From a virus (lineage: Duplodnaviria; Heunggongvirae; Uroviricota; Caudoviricetes): a stretch of DNA of 19,618 nt. The position numbers and the translations under genes were made by a program. Positions 5,965 to 19,618 of this stretch are shown here, piece by piece. The notes under the pieces are model-generated. The model saw only the letters and a program-made list of their open reading frames with translations, ran no database searches and was not told where the DNA came from. The DNA lies in IMG/VR virus record IMGVR_UViG_2684622669_000001, positions 1 through 19,618 of that record. The stretch is one strand, 5' to 3'. Numbering within the stretch: position 1 is the stretch's first letter; each line of letters opens with the position of its first letter.

Positions 5965-6858
5965 ATGGACCAGATGGCAGAAAACACACCAGAAGTTGAA
6001 ATCGAAACCGACGCGTCAGAGCAGATTCCTGATGATGTCGAACTGGCTGAAGAAGTCGAAACAGAAGATGGCAGTGAGTCCTCCGGCAATGATGCAGAGG
6101 AAGCTACTGAAACTGATGACGACGAATCAGAACAGGAATTCTACTTTGGTGACGAAAAGCTGGATTCGCCAACCAGCGAAGATAGCGCAGAGCATGGACT
6201 GGTAAAACACCTGCGCAAGACGATTAAAGAGAAAGACCGCGAGCTGAAAGAGCTGATGCGTCAGTCTCAGAAACCCGTCGAGCAGCAGCCGGTAATCACT
6301 CAACCACCGAGAATGCCAAAACTGGACGATGAGGACATCGGTTTCGATGAAGAAATCTACCAGCAACGCATGGCTAAGTGGGCAGAGGATAACGGCAAGT
6401 ACCAGCAACAGGAGATGGCTCGCAAGCAGAAGGAGCAGGAGCTTCAGGCTGCCTATCAAGAGCGATTATCCAAATATCAGCAACGTGTTAAGGCCCTCAA
6501 AGTTCCTGGCTATCAGGAAGCTGAGCAGGCCGTACTCGAGGAAATCCCCATCGAGACACAAAACGCGATCCTGTTTGAGTCAGAGAAGCCGGAAATCGTT
6601 GTTCTGGCGCTCGGTCGCAACGCTGAACTGCGCAAGCAACTGGCAGAAGCTACCAACCCCGTAGCAATTGGTCGTCTGCTGGAACGTATCGAATCGAAGG
6701 CCAGAATCATGCCAAAAGCAAAAACCACGGCAGCCACAACCCCGACAGTTAAGGGGAGCAACGGCGCAGTAATCAATAACCTCGACAAACTGAAAGCCAA
6801 GGCGCTGGAAACTGGTGACTGGACGCCGTATTTCGCCGCTAAAAAGGCAAAAAAATAA
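5965..6858 (+). CDS. Scaffolding protein
   Basis: 297 aa (P22 gp8 is about 303 aa). Sits between portal and coat. Highly acidic N-terminus and Q/K/E-rich helical remainder. SD cagggg. Confidence 0.75.
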   Translation: MDQMAENTPEVEIETDASEQIPDDVELAEEVETEDGSESSGNDAEEATETDDDESEQEFYFGDEKLDSPTSEDSAEHGLVKHLRKTIKEKDRELKELMRQSQKPVEQQPVITQPPRMPKLDDEDIGFDEEIYQQRMAKWAEDNGKYQQQEMARKQKEQELQAAYQERLSKYQQRVKALKVPGYQEAEQAVLEEIPIETQNAILFESEKPEIVVLALGRNAELRKQLAEATNPVAIGRLLERIESKARIMPKAKTTAATTPTVKGSNGAVINNLDKLKAKALETGDWTPYFAAKKAKK

Positions 6859-12091: not shown

Positions 12092-13441
12092 ATGGCTACG
12101 TGGCAACAGGGTATTAATTCTGGTGGTTTTCTGGCTGGCATCGGTACGCAAAATGAGAATGCGCCAAAGGCAAGCGACATTAACGCAACGCTTGGTCTGA
12201 TCCGCGAAAACAATGAGTTGGCTCGCTCAGGTGCAAATAACGTTGGTCTGACCGCGTTACGTGGTCTGGCTGGAGTTGCTGATATTTATAAGCAGGAACA
12301 GCAACAGAAAGCGATTAATGCGTTCAATAAGGTTCATGCTGATGCATGGGCTTCTGGTGATCCATCGGGACTATTTAAGTTTGCCAAGGAAAATCCAGCG
12401 TTTGTTGCGCAGGCACAACAGGCGTTTTCCGGTCTTAATGAGCAGCAACGCAACGATATGGGCGATTTAGCCATGAGAGCTAACGTCGCTCTTTCTCAGG
12501 GACCGGAAGCCTACAGTAAATTCATTACTGACAACAAGGACAGGTTAAATCGCGTTGGCGCTAATGCTGACTGGATGATTCAGACAGGTATCCAGAATCC
12601 AGAGCAGCTATCACACATGCTGACTACTATGTCTCTCGGTGCGCTTGGACCAGAAAAGGCGTTTGCTGTTCAGGATAAGATGGTTGGTCGCCAGCAGGAG
12701 CAGCAAAGAATTAAAGAAACCATTCGCAATAATGACATGACGAATGCGAGGGCTATTAGGGGTCAGGATCTTTCCTATAAGGCTCAAATGGCAAGACTGA
12801 ATCACGACAAGTATGTGTTTAAGCAGTCACAGGCGGCCCTTGAAAGAGCAGGACAACTTCAGGATATGGATGTTTTGTCTCTTAACTCACAGATAGCAGC
12901 GACGGGAATTGATCCGCTAACCGGTAAAGCTGCAACGTCAGCCAGAATGTCTCAGGCTAAGAGATGGCTTGATGGCAACAATAATTACAACAATGCGTTA
13001 ATTACTGGTGAGCGAGGGATAGAGAAAATTGATTCTTTGCTTGGTAAGAAGGAGCTTGAAGGTATTGGTCGCTTCGAAGGAAGAAATATAGATGGCTTCA
13101 CAAGTGCTGAAGGGCTTGCAAACCGTAATGCGATAGAAGAATTAAAGTCGGGGGCGTTTGTCCAGAACGTGCAGACTATGCGAGGTATGGGTAGCCTCTC
13201 CAATGCTGAAGGCCAAAAACTGGAAAACCTGATCGCGAAACTCGATATAACACAGCCTGAAGAGGTCGTCAGAAAACAGTTATCTGAAATCCGATCGCAA
13301 TATTCTGTATTTCAAAAGGTTGCAGCAAGGGAGGCTGAATCAATGGGATATAGTTCATCAGGTTATGACACATATGTTAGTGAGCGAAAATCAGGAAGCG
13401 ACAGCAATAAGTCCGGTTTCTCGTCTTTATGGGGTGATTAA
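12092..13441 (+). CDS. Ejection protein, P22 gp20-like
   Basis: 449 aa (P22 gp20 is about 471 aa). Position in the operon; SD aagggg. Confidence 0.7.
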
Positions 13442-15609
13442 TGGCTAAAGCATGGAAAGATGTTATCGCTTCTCCACAGTATCAGGCGTTAACTGAAGAA
13501 CAGAAAGCACAGGCTCAAGCGCAATATTTTGATGAGGTTGTTGCCCCTAAGGCTGGTGACAAATGGGCTGAAGCAAGAGATCAGTTTTATGCAGCATACC
13601 CTCCGCCTCAGCAGCAGAAAGAAGAACCATCATTGATGCAACAAGCTGGCGATTGGCTCACTGGTGGTCAAAGTGCAGGGCAAATTGCAGAACAGGCTGG
13701 TCGTGGTCTGGTAAACATACCATTTGACGTATTGCAGGGTGGCGCAAGTCTGATTAATGCAATCAGCCAGGGGCTTGGTGGCCCCAAGGTTTTGGATGAT
13801 GTTTATCGCCCTGTCGATCGACCGACAGACCCTTGGGCGCAAGCCGGTGAAACATTTGGGGGGTATCTCCTGCCAATTGGCACAGCGGCAAAAGCTGCTG
13901 GAGCGACAGCAAAGCTCGCAGGAGACATCGGTTCCGCAGGAAACATGATTGCAGGTTCTCTTGCTGATGCTGCAAATCAGGAGGGCGATTTTGCACAAAA
14001 TGCTGCCATTAATGGTGGTATCAATATTGGTGCTCAGGGGATACTTTCTGGGGCTGGAAGGATCTTAACCTCTAAATCACCTCAAGTTCTTGGTGGCGGG
14101 GCAATAAATTCCGCTGCTGATGTTTCGAAAATGGCAAAGTCTGGTACAGGAAGAGAGATTATTGCCAGACAGTCAGCTAATGTGTCAGACGAAATAGCAA
14201 AAGCAGCAGATACTGCTGGAATAGATATCAACGCATTAACTCCTGGCATGAGATCAGGTAGTCGTGGTCTTGCTCAGGCGGAGGGGATTCTGGCGTCAAA
14301 GCCCGGAATTACACAGGATGCACACACCAAAGCATTCAGTGAAATAGAGTCGAAATTTAACTCAGCATTGGATGAGTTTGGGGCTGAAGCAGGAACTGCA
14401 TCAGAAAAAAGTGCAGCCATAAAACAAAGGGTTTTGGCAAGTATTGATAAAATGAAAAATTCAGAAAAGGCCGCATGGGATAGCGTCCGCTCCACGATTC
14501 CTGACGCAAAGGCCAGAATGTCAAACCTGAACGCTACAATTCAGGGTGATATTTTGGCTGGCATGCCGCTAACTCCTGAGATGAAACAATTCGCATCTGC
14601 TTATGCTAAAACTGGTAAAAAAGGAATCACGTTTGATGCCATGAAGGCATGGCGAAGTAAACTTGCTGACGCAGAGCAGAAGTATATAAGGTCTGGTGAG
14701 GCAAATACGGCAAGGCGCATGGCTGAGCTTCGTGATGCAGCAACGGAAGATATGCGCATAATGGCTCAAAATGGCGGTTTTCTTGATGACTGGCAAAAAG
14801 CTAATGATCTGTCAAAGGCAAGATTTACAGCACAAGAACAGGCTGAAGCAGCGTTTGGTAGAGACCTTGCAACTGATCAGTTGGTAACTAATGGATCTAA
14901 GGCGTTACAGGGTTCAGCAAAAAGTGGAACAGGTCAGTTCCATAAAATAATAAGCGCCCTACCTGAGTCGGAACGCGCGCCAGCAATTGCATCAATATTA
15001 CAAGATGCAATGTCGCAAGGGGTACGCGGAGGTAAGTCTGAAGAGGCTGGAATTAAGCATATCGCGACTATTCTTACCCCACAAAACGTGAAGGCAATTA
15101 GTCGATATTCTCCAGAACTTGGCAGGATTACAAGTTCATACGGAGAACTTGCACGAGCAGCAACAAAGCCACTTCGATATGTTGAACAGACAGGGCGATC
15201 TATGCCAGCCATTAGCACTCTTGAGAATGGCCTTCATCCAGTTTTAGAGAGCGCATTGTCTGGCGCTTTTAGAACTACTGGCACTATCGCAGGGTTCTCT
15301 GGAGGAGGCGTTATTGGAGCAATAGCGGGTGGCGCTGCAGGTGGGGCAATTGATGCAATGGCAAAAGGAGCGATAGCGAAATTATCCGCAACTAGAAGCG
15401 GTCGTTACGCTATTGAAAAGGCTGTTCAAGAGGCAACAAAGGCAGTTAAGGTTGGGGCAAGTGATGGCGCATTAGCGGCGGCGGAACGCAGATTTATGGC
15501 AAATAAGGCCGCCGTAAAAGCAATACGCGAGGCACTAGGAAACGAAGAGTTCCAGCGTTTAGCAAGAGCTGGAATTGTGGCATCGCTAAGCGGAATGGCA
15601 CAGGAGTAA
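13441..15609 (+). CDS. Ejection protein, P22 gp16-like (longer than P22 gp16)
   Basis: 722 aa, last gene of the virion operon, TAATG overlap with the upstream gene. Gly/Ala-rich hydrophobic segment near the C-terminus ([30 protein letters not shown]). Confidence 0.7.
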
Positions 15610-15939
15610 TTAGTCATCCATGGATGGATTGAGCTTATCTCGTGTTGATGTGGCAATTTTCCCAACATTTTTCAACCAAGATTTTAAGAAGGATATGTCG
15701 TCCTTAATATCATGAATATCCTCATTCTTTATACGATCAACCTTATCCTCTAAGCTCTCTATAGAACGCTCAATGCTAGACAGAGAGATTTTTAAGTCCC
15801 CTTGCTCACGTTCCAGTGAGGATTTGAGAGCACAATATTCGTTTTCTAGAATTCCTATTTTTTTTGTTAGAGAGTGCATTCGATACTCATACACCAAACC
15901 AGAAACGACTAATGCAGCCAACAGAAACCATTCAAGCAC
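15610..15939 (-). CDS. Hypothetical membrane-anchored coiled-coil protein (accessory gene)
   Basis: The track ORF 15610-16155(-) is trimmed to the in-frame GTG at 15937-15939, which has a perfect SD aaggagg 5 nt upstream. Predicted product has an N-terminal hydrophobic helix (LEWFLLAALVVSGLVYEY) then a heptad-like charged region. Stop abuts the gp16-like stop. AT-rich. Confidence 0.5.
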   Translation of the reverse strand: MLEWFLLAALVVSGLVYEYRMHSLTKKIGILENEYCALKSSLEREQGDLKISLSSIERSIESLEDKVDRIKNEDIHDIKDDISFLKSWLKNVGKIATSTRDKLNPSMDD

Positions 15940-15969
15940 ACCAACCTCCTTAGTTTTGAACAGGATACC

Positions 15970-16335
15970 ATGAAAAAAGTTAACATTGGAAACGTACCAA
16001 AGATGCTCGTTCCGCTCTTTGAGAGCGGTACAATTGTGTTTTGTAGAGACTTTCCAGAATGGCAACGCCTGCATCAAAAACTTGGCGTTGACGTGCATGA
16101 CTCGGACGCCAACGGAGCGTCTCATACAATGAGTAGCGAGAATGGTGTTTTGCATGTGATAGGCGTGTTCAATGGCAAACTATCTACTATTGCCCATGAG
16201 TGCGCTCACATGGCATTCGATATCTGCTCAAGGGTAGGTGTTGATGTTGAACTAGGAAGAGCCAACGAGACTTACTGCTACTTAATGAGCAGGCTTGTTG
16301 AGTTCTGCGAGCGACATATCAAAAAGCCGGAGTGA
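15970..16335 (+). CDS. Hypothetical HExxH-motif protein (putative minimal zincin-like metallopeptidase)
   Basis: 121 aa, SD agga 4 nt upstream of ATG. Contains IAHECAHMAFD (HExxH) with a downstream Glu in NETYCY, the gluzincin spacing. Stop codon sits in the loop of a terminator hairpin. Confidence 0.6.
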   Translation: MKKVNIGNVPKMLVPLFESGTIVFCRDFPEWQRLHQKLGVDVHDSDANGASHTMSSENGVLHVIGVFNGKLSTIAHECAHMAFDICSRVGVDVELGRANETYCYLMSRLVEFCERHIKKPE

Positions 16336-16343
16336 CCCGGCTT
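16324..16343. terminator. Bidirectional terminator between convergent accessory genes
   Basis: aagccgg (16324-16330) / agtgac / ccggctt (16337-16343). Flanked by aaaaa upstream and a T-rich stretch downstream, so both strands get a U-tract. Confidence 0.5.
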
Positions 16344-16348
16344 GATTA

Positions 16349-16528
16349 TTACTTTTTGCTGTCTGGAGTTCGCTTATCCAATACCCAGCCATGACCTGGC
16401 TTTGTTGTTGGTGGAAGCCTTTCGTTGTCCTTGACGGTTGCAAAATTGTCTTTCTTACCGCCGCGTGGGCCAACTTCTTGGTATATTCCGCCGTTTTTTC
16501 CTGTGTTTTCACCTGGTTTTTTCGCCAT
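16349..16528 (-). CDS. YjzC-like small protein (tentative family call)
   Basis: The track ORF 16349-16543(-) is trimmed to the second ATG (16526-16528), which has SD gagg 6 nt upstream. The 59-aa product MAKKPGENTGKNGGIYQEVGPRGG...ERLPPTTKPGHGWVL fits the YjzC pattern as recalled. Confidence 0.45.
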   Translation of the reverse strand: MAKKPGENTGKNGGIYQEVGPRGGKKDNFATVKDNERLPPTTKPGHGWVLDKRTPDSKK

Positions 16529-16610
16529 GATATACCTCAACATATACCCGTTATTGGGCGATTAAATATTGATCTCATTTTATAAGTAGTCAATATGGTC
16601 CAAAAAAGGC

Positions 16611-16645
16611 AAAAATTAACCCACCTTCAGGTGGGTTTTTTGTTT
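16611..16645. terminator. Bidirectional intrinsic terminator overlapping the 3' end of the Mnt-like gene
   Basis: aacccacc (16618-16625) / ttca / ggtgggtt (16630-16637), then tttttgttt on + and aattttt on the minus side. The Mnt-like stop codon (16627-16629) is in the loop. Confidence 0.6.
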
Positions 16646-16947
16646 AGCAGTTCTCTCAACTTTTCGTTCTGCTCTCTGAACTTTTCCTGTATTTCTTTTT
16701 GCATGGCGATAACCTGGGCTTGAAGTTGAACTAGCGCATCAACATTTAGCGGAACCGAGACGCTGTTGATTTTATCTGCTATTTCCCCGAGTGTATTTTC
16801 TGCATTCAAGGCATCTTCCAGTATCTGAACAATCTCTGAGTTCATTGATCTGCCGTTACGTTTGGCTCGTTCAGCTATAGCATCCCGCATTCCTGCAGGA
16901 AGCCTGATATTGAACCTATCCATTTCATGACTAGGGAACTTGCTCAT
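16627..16947 (-). CDS. Mnt/Arc-family ribbon-helix-helix repressor (Mnt-like paralogue 1) with extended C-terminal coiled coil
   Basis: 106 aa. FNIRLPAGMRDAIAERAKRNGRSMNSEIVQILEDAL matches the Arc/Mnt RHH motif (P22 Mnt: FNFRMPMEVREKLKFRAEANGRSMNSELLQIVQDAL, from memory). SD gagg. Divergent from the Arc-like gene. Confidence 0.8.
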   Translation of the reverse strand: MSKFPSHEMDRFNIRLPAGMRDAIAERAKRNGRSMNSEIVQILEDALNAENTLGEIADKINSVSVPLNVDALVQLQAQVIAMQKEIQEKFREQNEKLRELLNKKPT

Positions 16948-16989
16948 ATGACCTCAACGTAAAGATGTTCGCTAAACAATAGCACCAAC

Positions 16990-17029
16990 TTGACATCAAA
17001 ATAAATGGTGTTAAATTGGTTCTAGAACC
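16990..17029 (+). promoter_or_regulatory. Candidate rightward promoter (-35 TTGACA, -10 TAAATT) with overlapping palindromic operator
   Basis: TTGACA at 16990-16995, a 16-nt spacer, then TAAATT at 17012-17017. Perfect 12-bp palindrome GGTTCTAGAACC at 17018-17029, inside a 21-bp near-palindrome AATTGGTTCTAGAACCAAGTT (17014-17034). Confidence 0.45.
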
Positions 17030-17058
17030 AAGTTGGCATCATTGTGGGAGGATTACTT

Positions 17059-17232
17059 ATGAAAGATGTGCTTTACACAGGTCGTAAAAGTCAAAGTTTC
17101 CAGCTTCGTTTGCCAGCGCGAATGAAGGAGGAGATTAGACGTGTTGCTGAAATGGATGGAATTTCTATCAACTCTGCGATTGTGCAGCGACTGGCTAAAA
17201 GCCTGAGAGAGGAAAGAGCTAATGCCCAGTAA
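17059..17232 (+). CDS. Arc-like ribbon-helix-helix repressor
   Basis: The track ORF is trimmed to the ATG at 17059, with SD gggagg 7 nt upstream. 57 aa. FQLRLPARMKEEIRRVAEMDGISINSAIVQRL parallels P22 Arc (FNLRWPREVLDLVRKVAEENGRSVNSEIYQRV, from memory). Confidence 0.75.
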   Translation: MKDVLYTGRKSQSFQLRLPARMKEEIRRVAEMDGISINSAIVQRLAKSLREERANAQ

Positions 17233-17312
17233 AAATAGTGAAGCCCGGCAGTGCGTGAACACAAACCGGGCCTCTATGTCAGTAACCGTATGCAAGGAAA
17301 CTAACATGAATA
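17233..17312 (-). ncRNA. Candidate sar-like antisense RNA opposite the antirepressor ribosome-binding site (hypothetical)
   Basis: Minus-strand -10-like hexamers just inside the ant-like start (TACAAT = + 17312-17317; TATAAT = + 17328-17333). Minus-strand GC hairpin 17243-17272 followed by a U-rich stretch in the arc-ant spacer. Analogy to P22 sar RNA. Confidence 0.25.
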
Positions 17313-17932
17313 TTGTAGCAAAATCAGATTATAACTTCCACGGAGTTGAATTGGTGCCCACCCGTGATATGCATGGTGTTTGGTTTACATCATCTAATAT
17401 TGCATCTGCACTTAAATACGCAAATAGTCGTGCAGTAACAATGATTTATAACAAGTATAGCGATGAGTTTAGCGCCGGAATGACTCAGGTACTCGAAGTG
17501 AGTACCTCAGGAAATTATCGCAAAAAAGTGCGTGTTTTCTCACTACGCGGTGCCCACCTAATCGCGATGTTTGCTCGCACTCAGGTAGCCAAAGAGTTCC
17601 GCCGCTGGGTGCTGGATATTTTGGATCGGCAGGCAGAATGCTCACCGATTGCAAAACAGTTTACTGACGAAGAACTGGTTAATCTCTGCTACTTACAATT
17701 GTGGATGGAGAAGAGTCAACAAATGTGCAAACACATCTACCCAGGAATGAAGCAAATTGGTTCTGAGCTTTCAGGAAGGATTTACGATATTGCATATGAG
17801 ACTCGCTACATGTCAGAAGAAACCAAGAAATCACTTCTTCGTGAAATGAAGAATCTTGATACCAACAATTTTGTCGTAAAGAACGCTCAGCCAATGCTGG
17901 CAAAACTGCGCGGCGAGGAATGGATTCATTGA
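17306..17932 (+). CDS. Antirepressor-like protein (Bro-N / P22 antirepressor N-terminal-like domain)
   Basis: The track ORF 17222-17932 is trimmed to the ATG at 17306, with SD aagga 6 nt upstream. 208 aa. ...FSLRGAHLIAMFARTQVAKEFRRWVLDIL... is typical of Bro-N/antirepressor N-domains. Position after arc mirrors P22 arc-ant. Confidence 0.7.
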   Translation: MNIVAKSDYNFHGVELVPTRDMHGVWFTSSNIASALKYANSRAVTMIYNKYSDEFSAGMTQVLEVSTSGNYRKKVRVFSLRGAHLIAMFARTQVAKEFRRWVLDILDRQAECSPIAKQFTDEELVNLCYLQLWMEKSQQMCKHIYPGMKQIGSELSGRIYDIAYETRYMSEETKKSLLREMKNLDTNNFVVKNAQPMLAKLRGEEWIH

Positions 17933-17950
17933 TTGGTGCGCCGGACTGCG

Positions 17951-18026
17951 CAAAAAGAAAACCGCCAGTGTGCTGCTGGCGGCCTATGTCACACACTTAC
18001 TACCACATAAGGAATGCCTAATGACT
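17951..18026 (-). ncRNA. Second candidate antisense RNA with its own minus-strand terminator (hypothetical)
   Basis: Stem ccgccag (17962-17968) / ctggcgg (17976-17982). On the minus strand it is followed directly by GTTTTCTTTTTG (rc of 17951-17961); the + strand has no T-tract. Minus-strand promoter-like GTGACA-17 nt-TACATT inside the first codons of the 18021 gene. Confidence 0.25.
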
Positions 18027-18746
18027 TTTAAGAATGTAGCAAACATCGGATCCGTTGTCACGGATAAAACCATTGACAGCCAAAGTCTTCTGATGATGGT
18101 TAATGAAGCTCGCAAGTTATGTGGAGAGCCATCAGTACGTAACAACAAATTCATCGAGAAAATTGAGGATGAATTGGAAGGCGAGACCTACACAAAAAGT
18201 GTAGGTCGGAAAAACGGGGCTGACATTGATGTTATCTCCATGACTATCAAGCAGGCGCTTCGTGTTGCTGCTCGCGAATCTAAAGCAGTTCGCCGAACAC
18301 TTGTAGACAAACTTGAAAGTATGCAGGAAGCGCACATTAAAAGCGGTAAATCAGCGAGTGGACTTGTTGAGTATCGTCAAGCGCGAACATTGAAAATGAC
18401 GGTTGAAGCTGTTACCAATCTGTTCGATCTGATGCCAAATCTTGCGCCGGAGGCAAAGCAGACAGCGGCAGCAAGTATAATCAACCCGCTCGTTGGTTTT
18501 AATGCAATACCTCTTCCGGCAATAGAAGAGCATTACTACTCAGCAGGGGAGGTTGCAGAGCAGCTTGGAGTAACGGCCAACAAGATTGGTCGCATTGCTA
18601 ACGCAAACAACCTCAAAACTGAGCAGTACGGGAAGTTCTTCCTGGATAAATCTGCGCATTCCAGCAAACAGGTGGAAGCGTTCCGCTACAATGAGGAAGG
18701 TGTTAAAGCACTACAACACCTGATTCATGGGAGTAATGTTGCATAA
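18021..18746 (+). CDS. Second antirepressor-like / phage regulatory protein (Rha/ORF6N-like N-terminus, KilAC-like C-terminus; tentative)
   Basis: The track ORF 17970-18746 is trimmed to the ATG at 18021, with SD aaggaa 6 nt upstream. 241 aa. The N-terminal region (TIDSQSLLMMVNEARKLCG...) is Rha/ORF6N-like and the C-terminal region (YYSAGEVAEQLGVTANKIGRIANANNL...) is KilAC-like. Domain calls are from memory. Confidence 0.55.
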   Translation: MTFKNVANIGSVVTDKTIDSQSLLMMVNEARKLCGEPSVRNNKFIEKIEDELEGETYTKSVGRKNGADIDVISMTIKQALRVAARESKAVRRTLVDKLESMQEAHIKSGKSASGLVEYRQARTLKMTVEAVTNLFDLMPNLAPEAKQTAAASIINPLVGFNAIPLPAIEEHYYSAGEVAEQLGVTANKIGRIANANNLKTEQYGKFFLDKSAHSSKQVEAFRYNEEGVKALQHLIHGSNVA

Positions 18747-18967
18747 TGGCAAAGAAAAAATATGGCATTATGCCGCCAAGAATCAAAGGAAGAGCCAGGG
18801 TAAAAGGCGATGCTGGAAGGTATCACATTCTTGGAGTTCTGTGGCATGAGAGAGCTTTAATTTTAAGTAGACCTCATGGGTACATTGAAAAGGTATCTAT
18901 AGATAGAGTAGAGATTCTTCCCCTTACACCTGAAGAAGAAGAAACGTACGGACTTTTTGATAACTAA
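18746..18967 (+). CDS. Hypothetical small basic protein, translationally coupled to the upstream gene
   Basis: 73 aa. Start ATG overlaps the upstream stop (TAATG). Followed by a strong terminator. Confidence 0.45.
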   Translation: MAKKKYGIMPPRIKGRARVKGDAGRYHILGVLWHERALILSRPHGYIEKVSIDRVEILPLTPEEEETYGLFDN

Positions 18968-18973
18968 CCAGCT

Positions 18974-19004
18974 AAACCCGCTTAATCGCGGGTTTTTTCT
19001 TTTC
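18974..19004 (+). terminator. Intrinsic terminator ending the rightward accessory operon
   Basis: aaacccgc (18974-18981) / ttaatc / gcgggttt (18988-18995), followed by ttt and cttttc. The minus-strand Mnt-like stop codon (18982-18984) is in the loop. Confidence 0.6.
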
Positions 19005-19239
19005 TAAGGATATCAGCCGCAACTTCTTTTACTCGCTCCGAGATTAATGAGGCCAACCTCTCTTCTTCATCACGATACCCGCTTACAGGTGATGGTTTGG
19101 AGAGTGATTCTTCCATCGTAGCCACAATTTCGGAATTGATAGACCTGTTATTCATTTTTGCACGCTGCTTAATCTTAGCGTGCAACTCGTGCGTAAGCCT
19201 CAAGTGGAACTGCGCCTCATCGTATTTGCTGTACATCAT
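18982..19239 (-). CDS. Mnt-like ribbon-helix-helix repressor (paralogue 2, closest to P22 Mnt)
   Basis: The track ORF 18982-19320(-) is trimmed to ATGATG at 19234-19239, with SD gagg 5 nt upstream. 85 aa. QFHLRLTHELHAKIKQRAKMNNRSINSEIV...SKPSPVSGYRDEEERLA parallels P22 Mnt (...NGRSMNSELL...SKPSPVTGYRNDAERLA, from memory). Confidence 0.8.
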   Translation of the reverse strand: MMYSKYDEAQFHLRLTHELHAKIKQRAKMNNRSINSEIVATMEESLSKPSPVSGYRDEEERLASLISERVKEVAADILRKEKTRD

Positions 19240-19371
19240 CAATGCCTCACCAAATGGGTGGAATGGCATCGTAAAACCTACTGTACAAATCAACAATCGT
19301 ACCATTTCGGTATGCAACAAACATCAACCGTAGCCATGCTGCGGCGATTCCTTGTATCTGGAGCAAATTAA

Positions 19372-19530
19372 ATGACAGACATTACAGCCAATGTGATCGT
19401 ATCGATGCCTTCGCAACTCTTCACTATGGCGCGTTCTTTTAAAGCTGTAGCTAATGGCAAAATTTATATCGGTAAAATTGATACTGACCCAGTAAATCCA
19501 GAAAACCAGATTCAGGTTTATGTAGAGAAC
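19372..19530 (+). pseudogene. Tailspike gene, N-terminal head-binding domain only (interrupted by IS2)
   Basis: [53 protein letters not shown] matches the conserved P22/Sf6/HK620 tailspike N-terminus. After codon 53 the reading frame enters an IS end and no longer resembles tailspike. Confidence 0.85.
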
Positions 19531-19618
19531 TGGATTTGCCCCTATATTTCCAGACACCTGTTATCACTTAACCCATTACTGGCCTGCTGCCGCAGATATT
19601 CCCGTGGCGAGCGATAAC
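19531..19618 (-). mobile_element. IS2 (IS3 family) terminal inverted repeat and 3' end of the transposase gene, partial (continues beyond window)
   Basis: TGGATTTGCCCCTATATTTCCAGACACCTGTTATCACTTAACCC matches the IS2 terminal inverted repeat as recalled. The minus-strand translation of 19545-19618 gives ...[24 protein letters not shown], typical of an IS3-family OrfB C-terminus. Confidence 0.8.
19542..19618 (-). CDS. IS2 transposase OrfB C-terminal fragment (partial, 5' part outside window)
   Basis: Minus-strand frame ends with stop TAG (+ 19542-19544) after ...[26 protein letters not shown]. This ending is characteristic of IS3-family transposases. Confidence 0.7.

Follow-up and report, generated by a model that had tools for sequence, protein, structure and literature searches.

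What three small genes between the DNA-ejection gene 16 and the immI region of a P22-family prophage are for, and whether they belong together, is the question raised by positions 15610 to 16528 of the IMG/VR virus record IMGVR_UViG_2684622669_000001. The window, which here means the whole stretch of 19,618 nucleotides that was analysed, is the late region of the prophage and carries a Rha-like gene, the terminase, portal, coat and ejection-protein genes, the immI region and the start of a tailspike gene. An original prediction had read the interval as a novel three-gene defence cassette, and this is only partly right. Its three small open reading frames, with their strands, sizes and HExxH motif, are confirmed, and so is their placing as accessory (moron) genes where gene 16 meets immI. 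The prophage is of the P22 family and HK620-like; the interval makes up the left part of its 'ant moron' and consists of two independently recombining modules, hkcB on the one hand and hkcC with hkcD on the other. It is not one cassette because the genes occur separately and the breakpoints of similarity fall at start codons. This architecture (gene identity, two modules, a sieA slot, a conserved pair and a zincin motif) is well supported, while the functions proposed below are inferred.

A megablast search of phage records found window positions 15400-16643 to be 97.3% identical to HK620 over 1,244 bp. In the HK620 record (AF335538) these genes are annotated as hkcB, hkcC and a frame that 'may encode HkcD'. 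The order and orientation of the three genes are unchanged in HK620, where they follow gene 16 immediately and lie between the gene 16 and gene 9 homologues, with 98% protein identity; HK620 differs in that only mnt and ant remnants are left to the right of the moron, whereas the immunity region of the window prophage is intact and enlarged. P22 and about 50 relatives match the window from position 15937 on, keeping hkcC and orf59a (another name of hkcD; 96.8% nucleotide identity for the two genes in P22) and carrying sieA in place of hkcB. In the P22 'ant moron', which reads sieA-hkcC-orf59a, hkcC and orf59a are the same genes as in the window, with 98% protein identity (PMC2629481; PMC10461980), whereas the P22-type gp16 of P22 is unlike the HK620-type gp16 of the window. 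In the epsilon34 genome paper the region is named the 'ant moron' and is said to be changing rapidly; hkcC, 59a and hkcB are listed there without a known function, and transcription from the late promoter is stated to pass through the moron into the tailspike gene (PMC2629481).

The PHROG families of the three genes (5962 for hkcB, 1365 for hkcC and 3202 for hkcD) are all of unknown function. Judged from these matches, genes that had been called unclassified are already catalogued, and the interval is not a new element; it holds the uncharacterised hkcB, hkcC and hkcD/orf59a. The prediction had also placed the cassette where P22 carries sieA and hkcC. This holds for the membrane protein, which lies in the sieA slot, but the HExxH gene is itself the P22 hkcC, and gene 16, taken to be the last virion gene, is followed beyond the moron by the tailspike gene. 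Scans of the three proteins against Pfam, NCBIfam and PADLOC gave no significant family, the YjzC match of HkcD lying below the cut-off, in agreement with the original prediction, which had assigned the first two to no characterised defence family. In PADLOC-DB 2.0 the sole match was of HkcB to DpdH (E = 0.002, 16 bits), judged to be coiled-coil noise, and HkcC and HkcD had none; the same models on 63 HkcC relatives gave scattered single matches, none of them consistent. Literature searches on SprT-like, prophage and anti-defence topics returned nothing relevant.

Co-occurrence separates the two modules clearly. Among 5,426 complete Escherichia coli genomes, hkcB was found in 82 and hkcC-hkcD in 113, with the whole block present in 33. 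The gene hkcB occurs without hkcC in epsilon34, CUS-3, SEN22, 611R6, E. coli EC28 and about 49 E. coli genomes; P22, about 50 further phage records and about 80 E. coli genomes have hkcC but no hkcB. The matches break off at the start codons of hkcB and hkcC (query positions 328-334 and 361).

The left-hand module lies in a slot that changes its gene from phage to phage. The starts of hkcB and hkcC are exactly 30 bp apart, as had been estimated. In an alignment of the window, HK620, P22 and a prophage of ST131, the four sequences are identical from inside hkcC leftward through the ribosome-binding site CTAAGGAG (minus strand), and the counterpart of the P22 PsieA promoter is identical in all four. 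The window, P22 and HK620 also have the spacer and the GTG start in common; the ST131 gene begins with ATG. Right after the start codon the four become unrelated. The gene hkcB sits, to the nucleotide, in the P22 sieA expression slot, comprising promoter region, ribosome-binding site, spacer and GTG. No terminator is present for hkcB.

To survey this slot, 80 IMG/VR viral contigs with a 98-99% identical hkcC were collected, and the gene starting 30 nt to its left was classified. The occupants were a 161-amino-acid lipoprotein (18 contigs), SieA (13), a 129-amino-acid secreted protein (12), a second 109-amino-acid protein with an anchor and a coiled coil but unrelated to HkcB (9), a 75-amino-acid membrane protein (8), HkcB itself (6), and proteins of 106 (5), 62 (4), 68 (2), 149 (2) and 99 (1) amino acids. 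Each of the previously unclassified occupants, the classes whose starts were checked one by one, begins with GTG at that distance. All 11 have a strongly hydrophobic segment: the Kyte-Doolittle 15-residue mean is never below 1.77, and 10 of the 11 reach 2.0, a value that none of 23 other window genes attains. The segment lies at or near the N-terminus in most occupants and is of the type expected of a signal peptide or membrane anchor. Because 11 unrelated occupants all carry such a segment, the slot is a hypervariable site for envelope proteins, with at least 11 unrelated occupants. SieA, an inner-membrane protein that blocks DNA delivery, is the only one that has been studied (PMC10461980). 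The second 109-amino-acid protein (MLEIVVLALGISCC...), seen in the IMG/VR contigs L114 and L090, has the same length and build as HkcB, and the two gave no BLASTP alignment at E ≤ 100. The 161-amino-acid protein of the ST131 prophage was considered as a divergent SieA and rejected, being a lipobox lipoprotein without the SieA motif.

HkcB was predicted as a membrane-anchored coiled-coil protein. The anchor is borne out by hydrophobic residues 2-17 (Kyte-Doolittle 15-residue mean 2.16), while the coiled coil is less firm: a heptad pattern runs over about residues 22-100, and the same occupancy of a and d positions was reached in 76 of 2000 shuffles, which makes the signal modest. Positive charges follow the hydrophobic stretch (R20, K26, K27) and none precedes it, so that by the positive-inside rule the bulk of HkcB would be cytoplasmic. 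The gene starts with GTG at 15939, and an AAGGAGG ribosome-binding site stands at a spacing of 5 nt. Good Shine-Dalgarno sequences had been claimed for both divergent genes, and this is true of hkcB, whereas hkcC has the weaker AGGA. The C-terminal 45 or so residues of HkcB are nearly invariant among homologues that are just 50% identical overall. In two metagenomic proteins, P0054 and P0055, this stretch is joined to a different, non-hydrophobic N-terminal half, and because of this fusion it may be an independent functional module. Faint matches of HkcB to Rz-like spanin and XhlA profiles (E = 0.05-0.07) are far from significant.

On its other side hkcB is tied to gene 16. The stop codons of the two genes adjoin with zero bases between them, and every hkcB examined adjoins an HK620-type gene 16 (708-722 amino acids, at least 71% identical). 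P22, which bears sieA, and the ST131 prophage, which bears the lipoprotein gene, have a P22-type gp16 of 609-614 amino acids. The gp16 of the window is 94.9% identical to that of HK620; for its epsilon34 and CUS-3 counterparts the figure is 71-75%, and the part it has in common with P22-type gp16 is limited to about residues 45-209. The CUS-3 protein (L007, 2822-4981) was by BLASTP 75% identical to the product of window positions 13441-15609, at odds with the figure of only 26% given for CUS-3 and HK620 gp16 in the SieA preprint (PMC10461980). The DNA over the tail-to-tail junction of gene 16 and hkcB forms an island of conservation, and in its flanks identity to epsilon34 and CUS-3 is down to 40-60%. 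Many E. coli prophages have this junction too, with an identity of about 82%. Base composition also sets hkcB apart. The guanine-plus-cytosine (GC) contents of about 35% and 50% first given for the cassette and the virion genes were overstated; the values are 43.2% and 49.2%, and by gene they are 37.9% for hkcB, 45.9% for hkcC and 46.7% for hkcD. The sole outlier is hkcB, which falls in the lowest 0.4% of 330-bp windows.

The second module begins with HkcC. An exhaustive profile search gave a family of 559 representative clusters at 50% identity, nearly all of 110-140 amino acids. Over 63 diverse members, whose identity to the window protein is 23-73%, the only invariant residues are G49, H76, E77, H80 and E100. 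HExxH was found in all 63, and a conserved glutamate about 20 residues past the second histidine in 57 (two adjacent spacings; exactly 20 in the window protein). The AlphaFold2 model (predicted local distance difference test, pLDDT, 88.7) has a small beta-sheet, one short helix and two long helices, residues 71-89 and 100-116, which bear the HExxH and the glutamate. Against predicted viral structures it gave 27 matches at E ≤ 1e-3, with template modelling (TM) scores up to 0.82, over a wide range of phages; a few of these are named SprT-like, metalloprotease or IrrE. No significant match was obtained to any solved structure. A broad alignment searched against PDB sequences gave marginal zincin matches only (myroilysin, E = 0.015), SPRTN was the top Foldseek match in the PDB, and a PDB-sequence profile search with a close HkcC alignment gave nothing. 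Weak as they are, the matches obtained, those to the named viral models included, all indicate zincins. The window protein has no Pfam match and lies below the gathering thresholds of SprT-like (PF10263) and ImmA-IrrE (PF06114); of the 63 relatives one matches SprT-like (E = 1e-4) and none PF06114. Single-protein locus searches with divergent relatives returned almost nothing in viral contigs.

From these data it was concluded that HkcC is a putative miniature zincin of a large, unnamed phage family with no assigned function. At the level of sequence and secondary structure it would be of the gluzincin type, with HExxH and a third-ligand glutamate on the next helix, and the invariant motif suggests catalysis. 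HkcC resembles SprT-like/Spartan (PF10263) and ImmA/IrrE (M78) proteases in its build: a small beta-sheet comes first, then a long helix with HExxH, then a second helix with the glutamate at a distance of about 20 residues. SprT differs in that its third ligand is a histidine, and ImmA/ImmR in that a helix-turn-helix repressor is adjacent, with none beside hkcC. Minigluzincins are further minimal HExxH-plus-glutamate metallopeptidases of this kind. Four cysteines of HkcC (25, 78, 86 and 103, one of them within HECAH) are invariant in a close subfamily of 17 sequences and not in the wider family; they may be a second metal site or serve redox control. A clade paralogous to hkcC (epsilon34 gp70, ST64T Orf-129) sits between the lysis genes and the terminase. 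In other P22-like phages the position upstream of the terminase genes holds this paralogue, and the window prophage has none there; it carries instead a Rha-family regulator (Phage_pRha and ORF11CD3; 401-943) and a protein of the N4 Gp49/Sf6 gene 66 family (1102-1473).

HkcD starts at the ATG at 16528, the start used by its homologues. It had been called YjzC-like and convergent with the HExxH gene. The second point is correct; on the first, the protein aligns full length with eight PF14168-positive proteins and keeps the conserved G..Y.E.GPRGG and PPT positions, but its own Pfam score (19.4 bits, E = 1.3e-3) is below the 25-bit cut-off. In the alignment G6, G14, E18, G20-P21-R22-G23 and P39 are invariant and P40 and T41 nearly so, and homologues at 76-80% identity carry the UniRef name 'YjzC family protein'. 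The namesake of the family, YjzC of Bacillus subtilis, is of unknown function; HkcD differs in being phage-borne and paired with a zincin gene. A PDB-sequence profile search with HkcD found no structure, and searches for functional literature on the YjzC family found none, being swamped by unrelated acronyms and strain names. A 122-amino-acid neighbour of hkcD in Salmonella bongori was considered as an HkcC relative and rejected, having no HExxH and no alignment.

Wherever the surroundings of an HkcC relative at 43-63% identity were looked up, an HkcD homologue of 59-61 amino acids lay convergent within about 15 bp. Among the loci fetched there were 15 distinct HkcC sequences at least 59% identical to the window protein, and 14 of these had a convergent HkcD nearby. 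The pair stands between the tail tube and tape-measure genes in Rosenbergiella, Klebsiella oxytoca and metagenomic prophages, and was also found in Morganella, Proteus, Xenorhabdus and Pasteurellaceae genomes. The identities of HkcC and HkcD drop in step (98/98, 61/80, 60/76, 43/61 and 43/55 percent). The two genes form a convergent pair, which travels as one unit among the late operons of prophages both short-tailed (P22-like) and long-tailed. In at least one of the loci in which a near-identical hkcC stands without hkcD (L039, 2880-3642), the minus strand carries a 74-amino-acid two-helix membrane protein and a 105-amino-acid signal-peptide protein.

Expression signals are arranged in opposite ways for the two genes of the pair. 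The hairpin between them is kept, with compensatory changes, in six unrelated genomic contexts. It had been described as a bidirectional terminator, and a symmetric terminator was rejected, the only usable T-tract being that for hkcD. The promoter element of hkcD and the 5' untranslated region behind it are conserved in P22, Rosenbergiella, Klebsiella oxytoca, Morganella and metagenomic sequences in which the flanking genes differ, and the commonest right-hand mosaic breakpoint, at about 16590-16600, falls just past this promoter. With a conserved promoter of its own and a terminator, hkcD appears to have the layout of a moron. For hkcC, no conserved promoter of its own was found. A sigma-70-like match inside hkcB (15824-15852) was considered as one and rejected, such matches being as frequent in shuffled sequence and this one being replaced in P22. 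In two long-tailed, Klebsiella-type prophages an intrinsic terminator (CCTCGC...GCGGGGTTTTTTT; L016, about 5970-6000, and L018, about 5965-6000) stands about 25 nt before the hkcC start, where hkcC is probably reached by antiterminated late transcription only. Every member of the HkcC family seen reads in the late-operon direction. Because the promoter and terminator of hkcD are conserved, and because hkcC lacks a conserved promoter and always has the late-operon orientation, we infer that the prophage expresses hkcD as a moron and that hkcC is a late gene; the HExxH gene, originally thought to be expressed from the prophage, probably is not.

A model combining these elements is possible, and is favoured tentatively at a likelihood somewhat short of even: HkcB would be a SieA-like envelope factor, and HkcC a late protease that removes or counteracts the HkcD made by the prophage. 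HkcB would be made in the lysogen and held in the inner membrane by its N-terminus, with the coiled-coil part on the cytoplasmic side. As with SieA, its site of action would be the envelope and its target an incoming phage; the most plausible way is interference with the channel that the ejection proteins build for DNA delivery. In the second module, hkcD would be expressed from the prophage and hkcC from antiterminated late transcription only. Being a small zinc metallopeptidase, with HExxH and a glutamate 20 residues on, HkcC could remove or counteract the basic HkcD, or the target of HkcD, once lytic growth starts, and late transcription running antisense through hkcD would silence that gene at the same time. 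ImmA/ImmR and IrrE/DdrO, which are protease-plus-substrate switches, offer an analogy in manner of working only. They are alike in that a small HExxH metalloprotease gene lies beside one for a small protein whose removal would change the state of the element; they differ in that their partner is a helix-turn-helix repressor, whereas HkcD is a predicted beta-protein, the genes are convergent, and cleavage is hypothetical here.

Several observations weigh against this model. For HkcB, the hydrophobic stretch is short (19-residue mean 1.48), and no BLASTP alignment with P22 SieA was obtained at E ≤ 100. P22 SieA has 164 amino acids, several membrane helices, the cytoplasmic motif FnRYPnEAnnFNK and proven exclusion (PMC10461980), while HkcB has 109 amino acids, one short N-terminal anchor, a coiled coil and no such motif, in a test that did show the motif and the helices of SieA. 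HK620-type gene 16 is also found without hkcB, and the linkage of the two may reflect recombination history only. For the pair, about 12% of near-identical hkcC loci lack hkcD, with the break at the hairpin; the paralogous clade between lysis genes and terminase lacks HkcD in 10 of 11 sequences; structural relatives of HkcC occur in several other phages, none shown here with hkcD; and HkcD homologues also occur without HkcC. The number of promoter-like matches in the region is not above that in shuffled sequence.

The main rival keeps the protease and drops its partner: HkcC would be a lytic-cycle counter-defence or host-takeover protease acting on a host protein, e.g. an immunity factor or a DNA-bound protein, and hkcD an unrelated moron that shares its terminator. 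Proteases of the SprT/Spartan type cleave such host proteins. The size of the family (559 clusters), its late-operon orientation throughout, its structural relatives in many other phages with no sign of hkcD (some of these phages are presumably lytic) and the paralogous clade without an HkcD partner all speak for this reading. It has to explain, however, why the pair is kept down to 43% HkcC identity in different prophage types with both proteins diverging in step, and it has neither a match to a known defence or anti-defence model nor a host target that can be named. It is considered unlikely. That the pair is instead a toxin and its antidote, or an abortive-infection pair, in which the protease is restrained by the small basic protein, or the reverse, until a phage triggers it, is improbable. 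In its favour, hkcC and hkcD are closely linked and pass together from one mobile element to another. Panacea domains are a marker of toxin-antitoxin systems; a Panacea-domain gene occurs in the same moron, and a HigB/helix-turn-helix pair lies elsewhere in the S. bongori prophage region mentioned above. However, the two co-directional, co-transcribed genes that define a type II toxin-antitoxin system are not what is seen here, hkcC and hkcD being convergent and separately transcribed with a terminator between them; moreover, each gene can occur alone and PADLOC gave no matches. A broader form of the favoured model was also considered, in which the slot occupants, numbering a dozen or more with HkcB among them, are all alternative superinfection-exclusion or envelope-modifying factors, each perhaps matched to one type of ejection protein, and hkcC-hkcD is a two-part switch, not recognised before and mobile between phage types, whose late-expressed miniature zinc protease clears a YjzC-type effector made by the prophage and so spares the lytic growth of the phage itself; taken whole, it is quite unlikely.

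The remaining readings concern hkcB or the interval as a whole. In the cassette as originally predicted, the membrane protein and the metallopeptidase-like protein would act together, expressed from the prophage, in exclusion, abortive infection or anti-defence. Adjacency, the divergent hkcB and hkcC starts, the sieA position and the whole block in HK620 and 33 complete E. coli genomes are what this reading has in its favour. Yet each gene occurs without the other, mosaic joints lie exactly between them, hkcC has the late-operon direction and PADLOC gave no match; the reading is already largely refuted by the co-occurrence data and is very improbable, and the pairing that is conserved is hkcC with hkcD. 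HkcB might also serve the phage's own cycle, either as a membrane protein of the lysis or spanin-like kind or by partnering HK620-type gp16 in assembly or in the delivery of DNA. The constant adjacency to HK620-type gene 16, the DNA island over the junction and the faint spanin and XhlA matches point that way, but hkcB is antisense to the late operon, its expression signals are common to sieA and at least nine other unrelated envelope proteins, and other prophages manage with an HK620-type gene 16 and no hkcB. The profile matches are, besides, far from significant, and the predicted topology (N-terminus out, bulk in) is the opposite of an inner-membrane spanin, which leaves this reading distinctly improbable. 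That one or more of the frames are non-functional leftovers of mosaic recombination would suit a region in rapid flux in which HK620 has degraded mnt and ant remnants alongside. It is scarcely credible when intact, length-conserved homologues of all three exist down to 40-50% identity with invariant motifs, and when the structure predictions for HkcC and HkcD are confident.

Features of the interval and of its surroundings, in window coordinates
Feature	Position	Strand	Details
gene 16 homologue	13441..15609	+	722-amino-acid DNA-ejection protein, HK620 type; from the open reading frame list; stop codon directly abuts hkcB
DNA conservation island over gene 16/hkcB junction	15459..15668		identity to epsilon34 and CUS-3 80-97%
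hkcB	15610..15939	-	109 amino acids; hydrophobic N-terminal anchor, heptad region, conserved C-terminus; phrog_5962, E = 1.9e-61
divergent 30-bp intergenic region	15940..15969		hkcB AAGGAGG 15945-15951 (minus); hkcC AGGA 15962-15965
counterpart of P22 PsieA promoter	15970..16000	-	predicted; in first 31 nt of hkcC; would drive hkcB; from P22-pbi annotation
hkcC	15970..16335	+	121-amino-acid zincin-like protein; HECAH 16195-16209, Glu100 16267-16269; phrog_1365
hkcC/hkcD hairpin terminator	16324..16343		hkcC stop codon in loop; T-run on minus (hkcD) strand only
hkcD/orf59a	16349..16528	-	59 amino acids, basic (isoelectric point 9.9), predicted all-beta with three strands (pLDDT 86.3), YjzC family; phrog_3202
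hkcD sigma-70-like promoter	16565..16593	-	predicted; TTGACT-17 nt-AATATT; conserved upstream of hkcD
tMNT (HK620) hairpin terminator	16618..16637		end of mnt-like gene; right-hand limit of HK620/P22 similarity
mnt-like gene	within 16627-19320		106-amino-acid Arc-domain repressor, long C-terminal tail
arc gene	within 16627-19320
antirepressor gene	within 16627-19320		236 amino acids; Bro-N and P22AR_C domains
two further genes	within 16627-19320		258 and 73 amino acids; no family
second Arc-domain gene	18982-19320	-

To the right of the moron, the immI region (16627-19320) is enlarged and holds an intact mnt-like gene, arc, two antirepressor-like genes and a second Arc-like gene. An Rfam scan of 15000-19618 found no RNA family. 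The tailspike gene starts at 19372 with a P22-type head-binding N-terminus, and is interrupted after about codon 53 (window 19531-19618) by a sequence starting TGGATTTGCCCCTATATTTCC, which resembles an IS2 end; in related prophages similarity ends at window position 19530. The query 13000-19618 matches 4,702 of the 5,426 E. coli genomes, in a median of 3 places each. In other loci, the cargo of this moron or of its vicinity was seen to include a Panacea-domain protein along with a partner gene, a P63C-domain protein and a nuclease-like protein of the SNIPE/T5orf172 kind (L035, 4052-4919; L010, 2987-3955; L008, 1376-2344; L016, 10241-11854), which suggests that the moron region collects conflict-related genes.

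The genes hkcB, hkcC and orf59a/hkcD have stood as 'unknown function' in P22-family genomes since about 2001, although P22 is a long-standing model phage. The present analysis turns three anonymous open reading frames into specific, testable hypotheses; should these fail, the region would be ordinary moron cargo. Only one of the at least 11 slot occupants has been characterised, and the slot is a possible source of new exclusion mechanisms acting on DNA delivery by short-tailed phages. The conserved hkcC-hkcD pair, with its opposite expression logic, could give the first functional handle on the widespread YjzC family.

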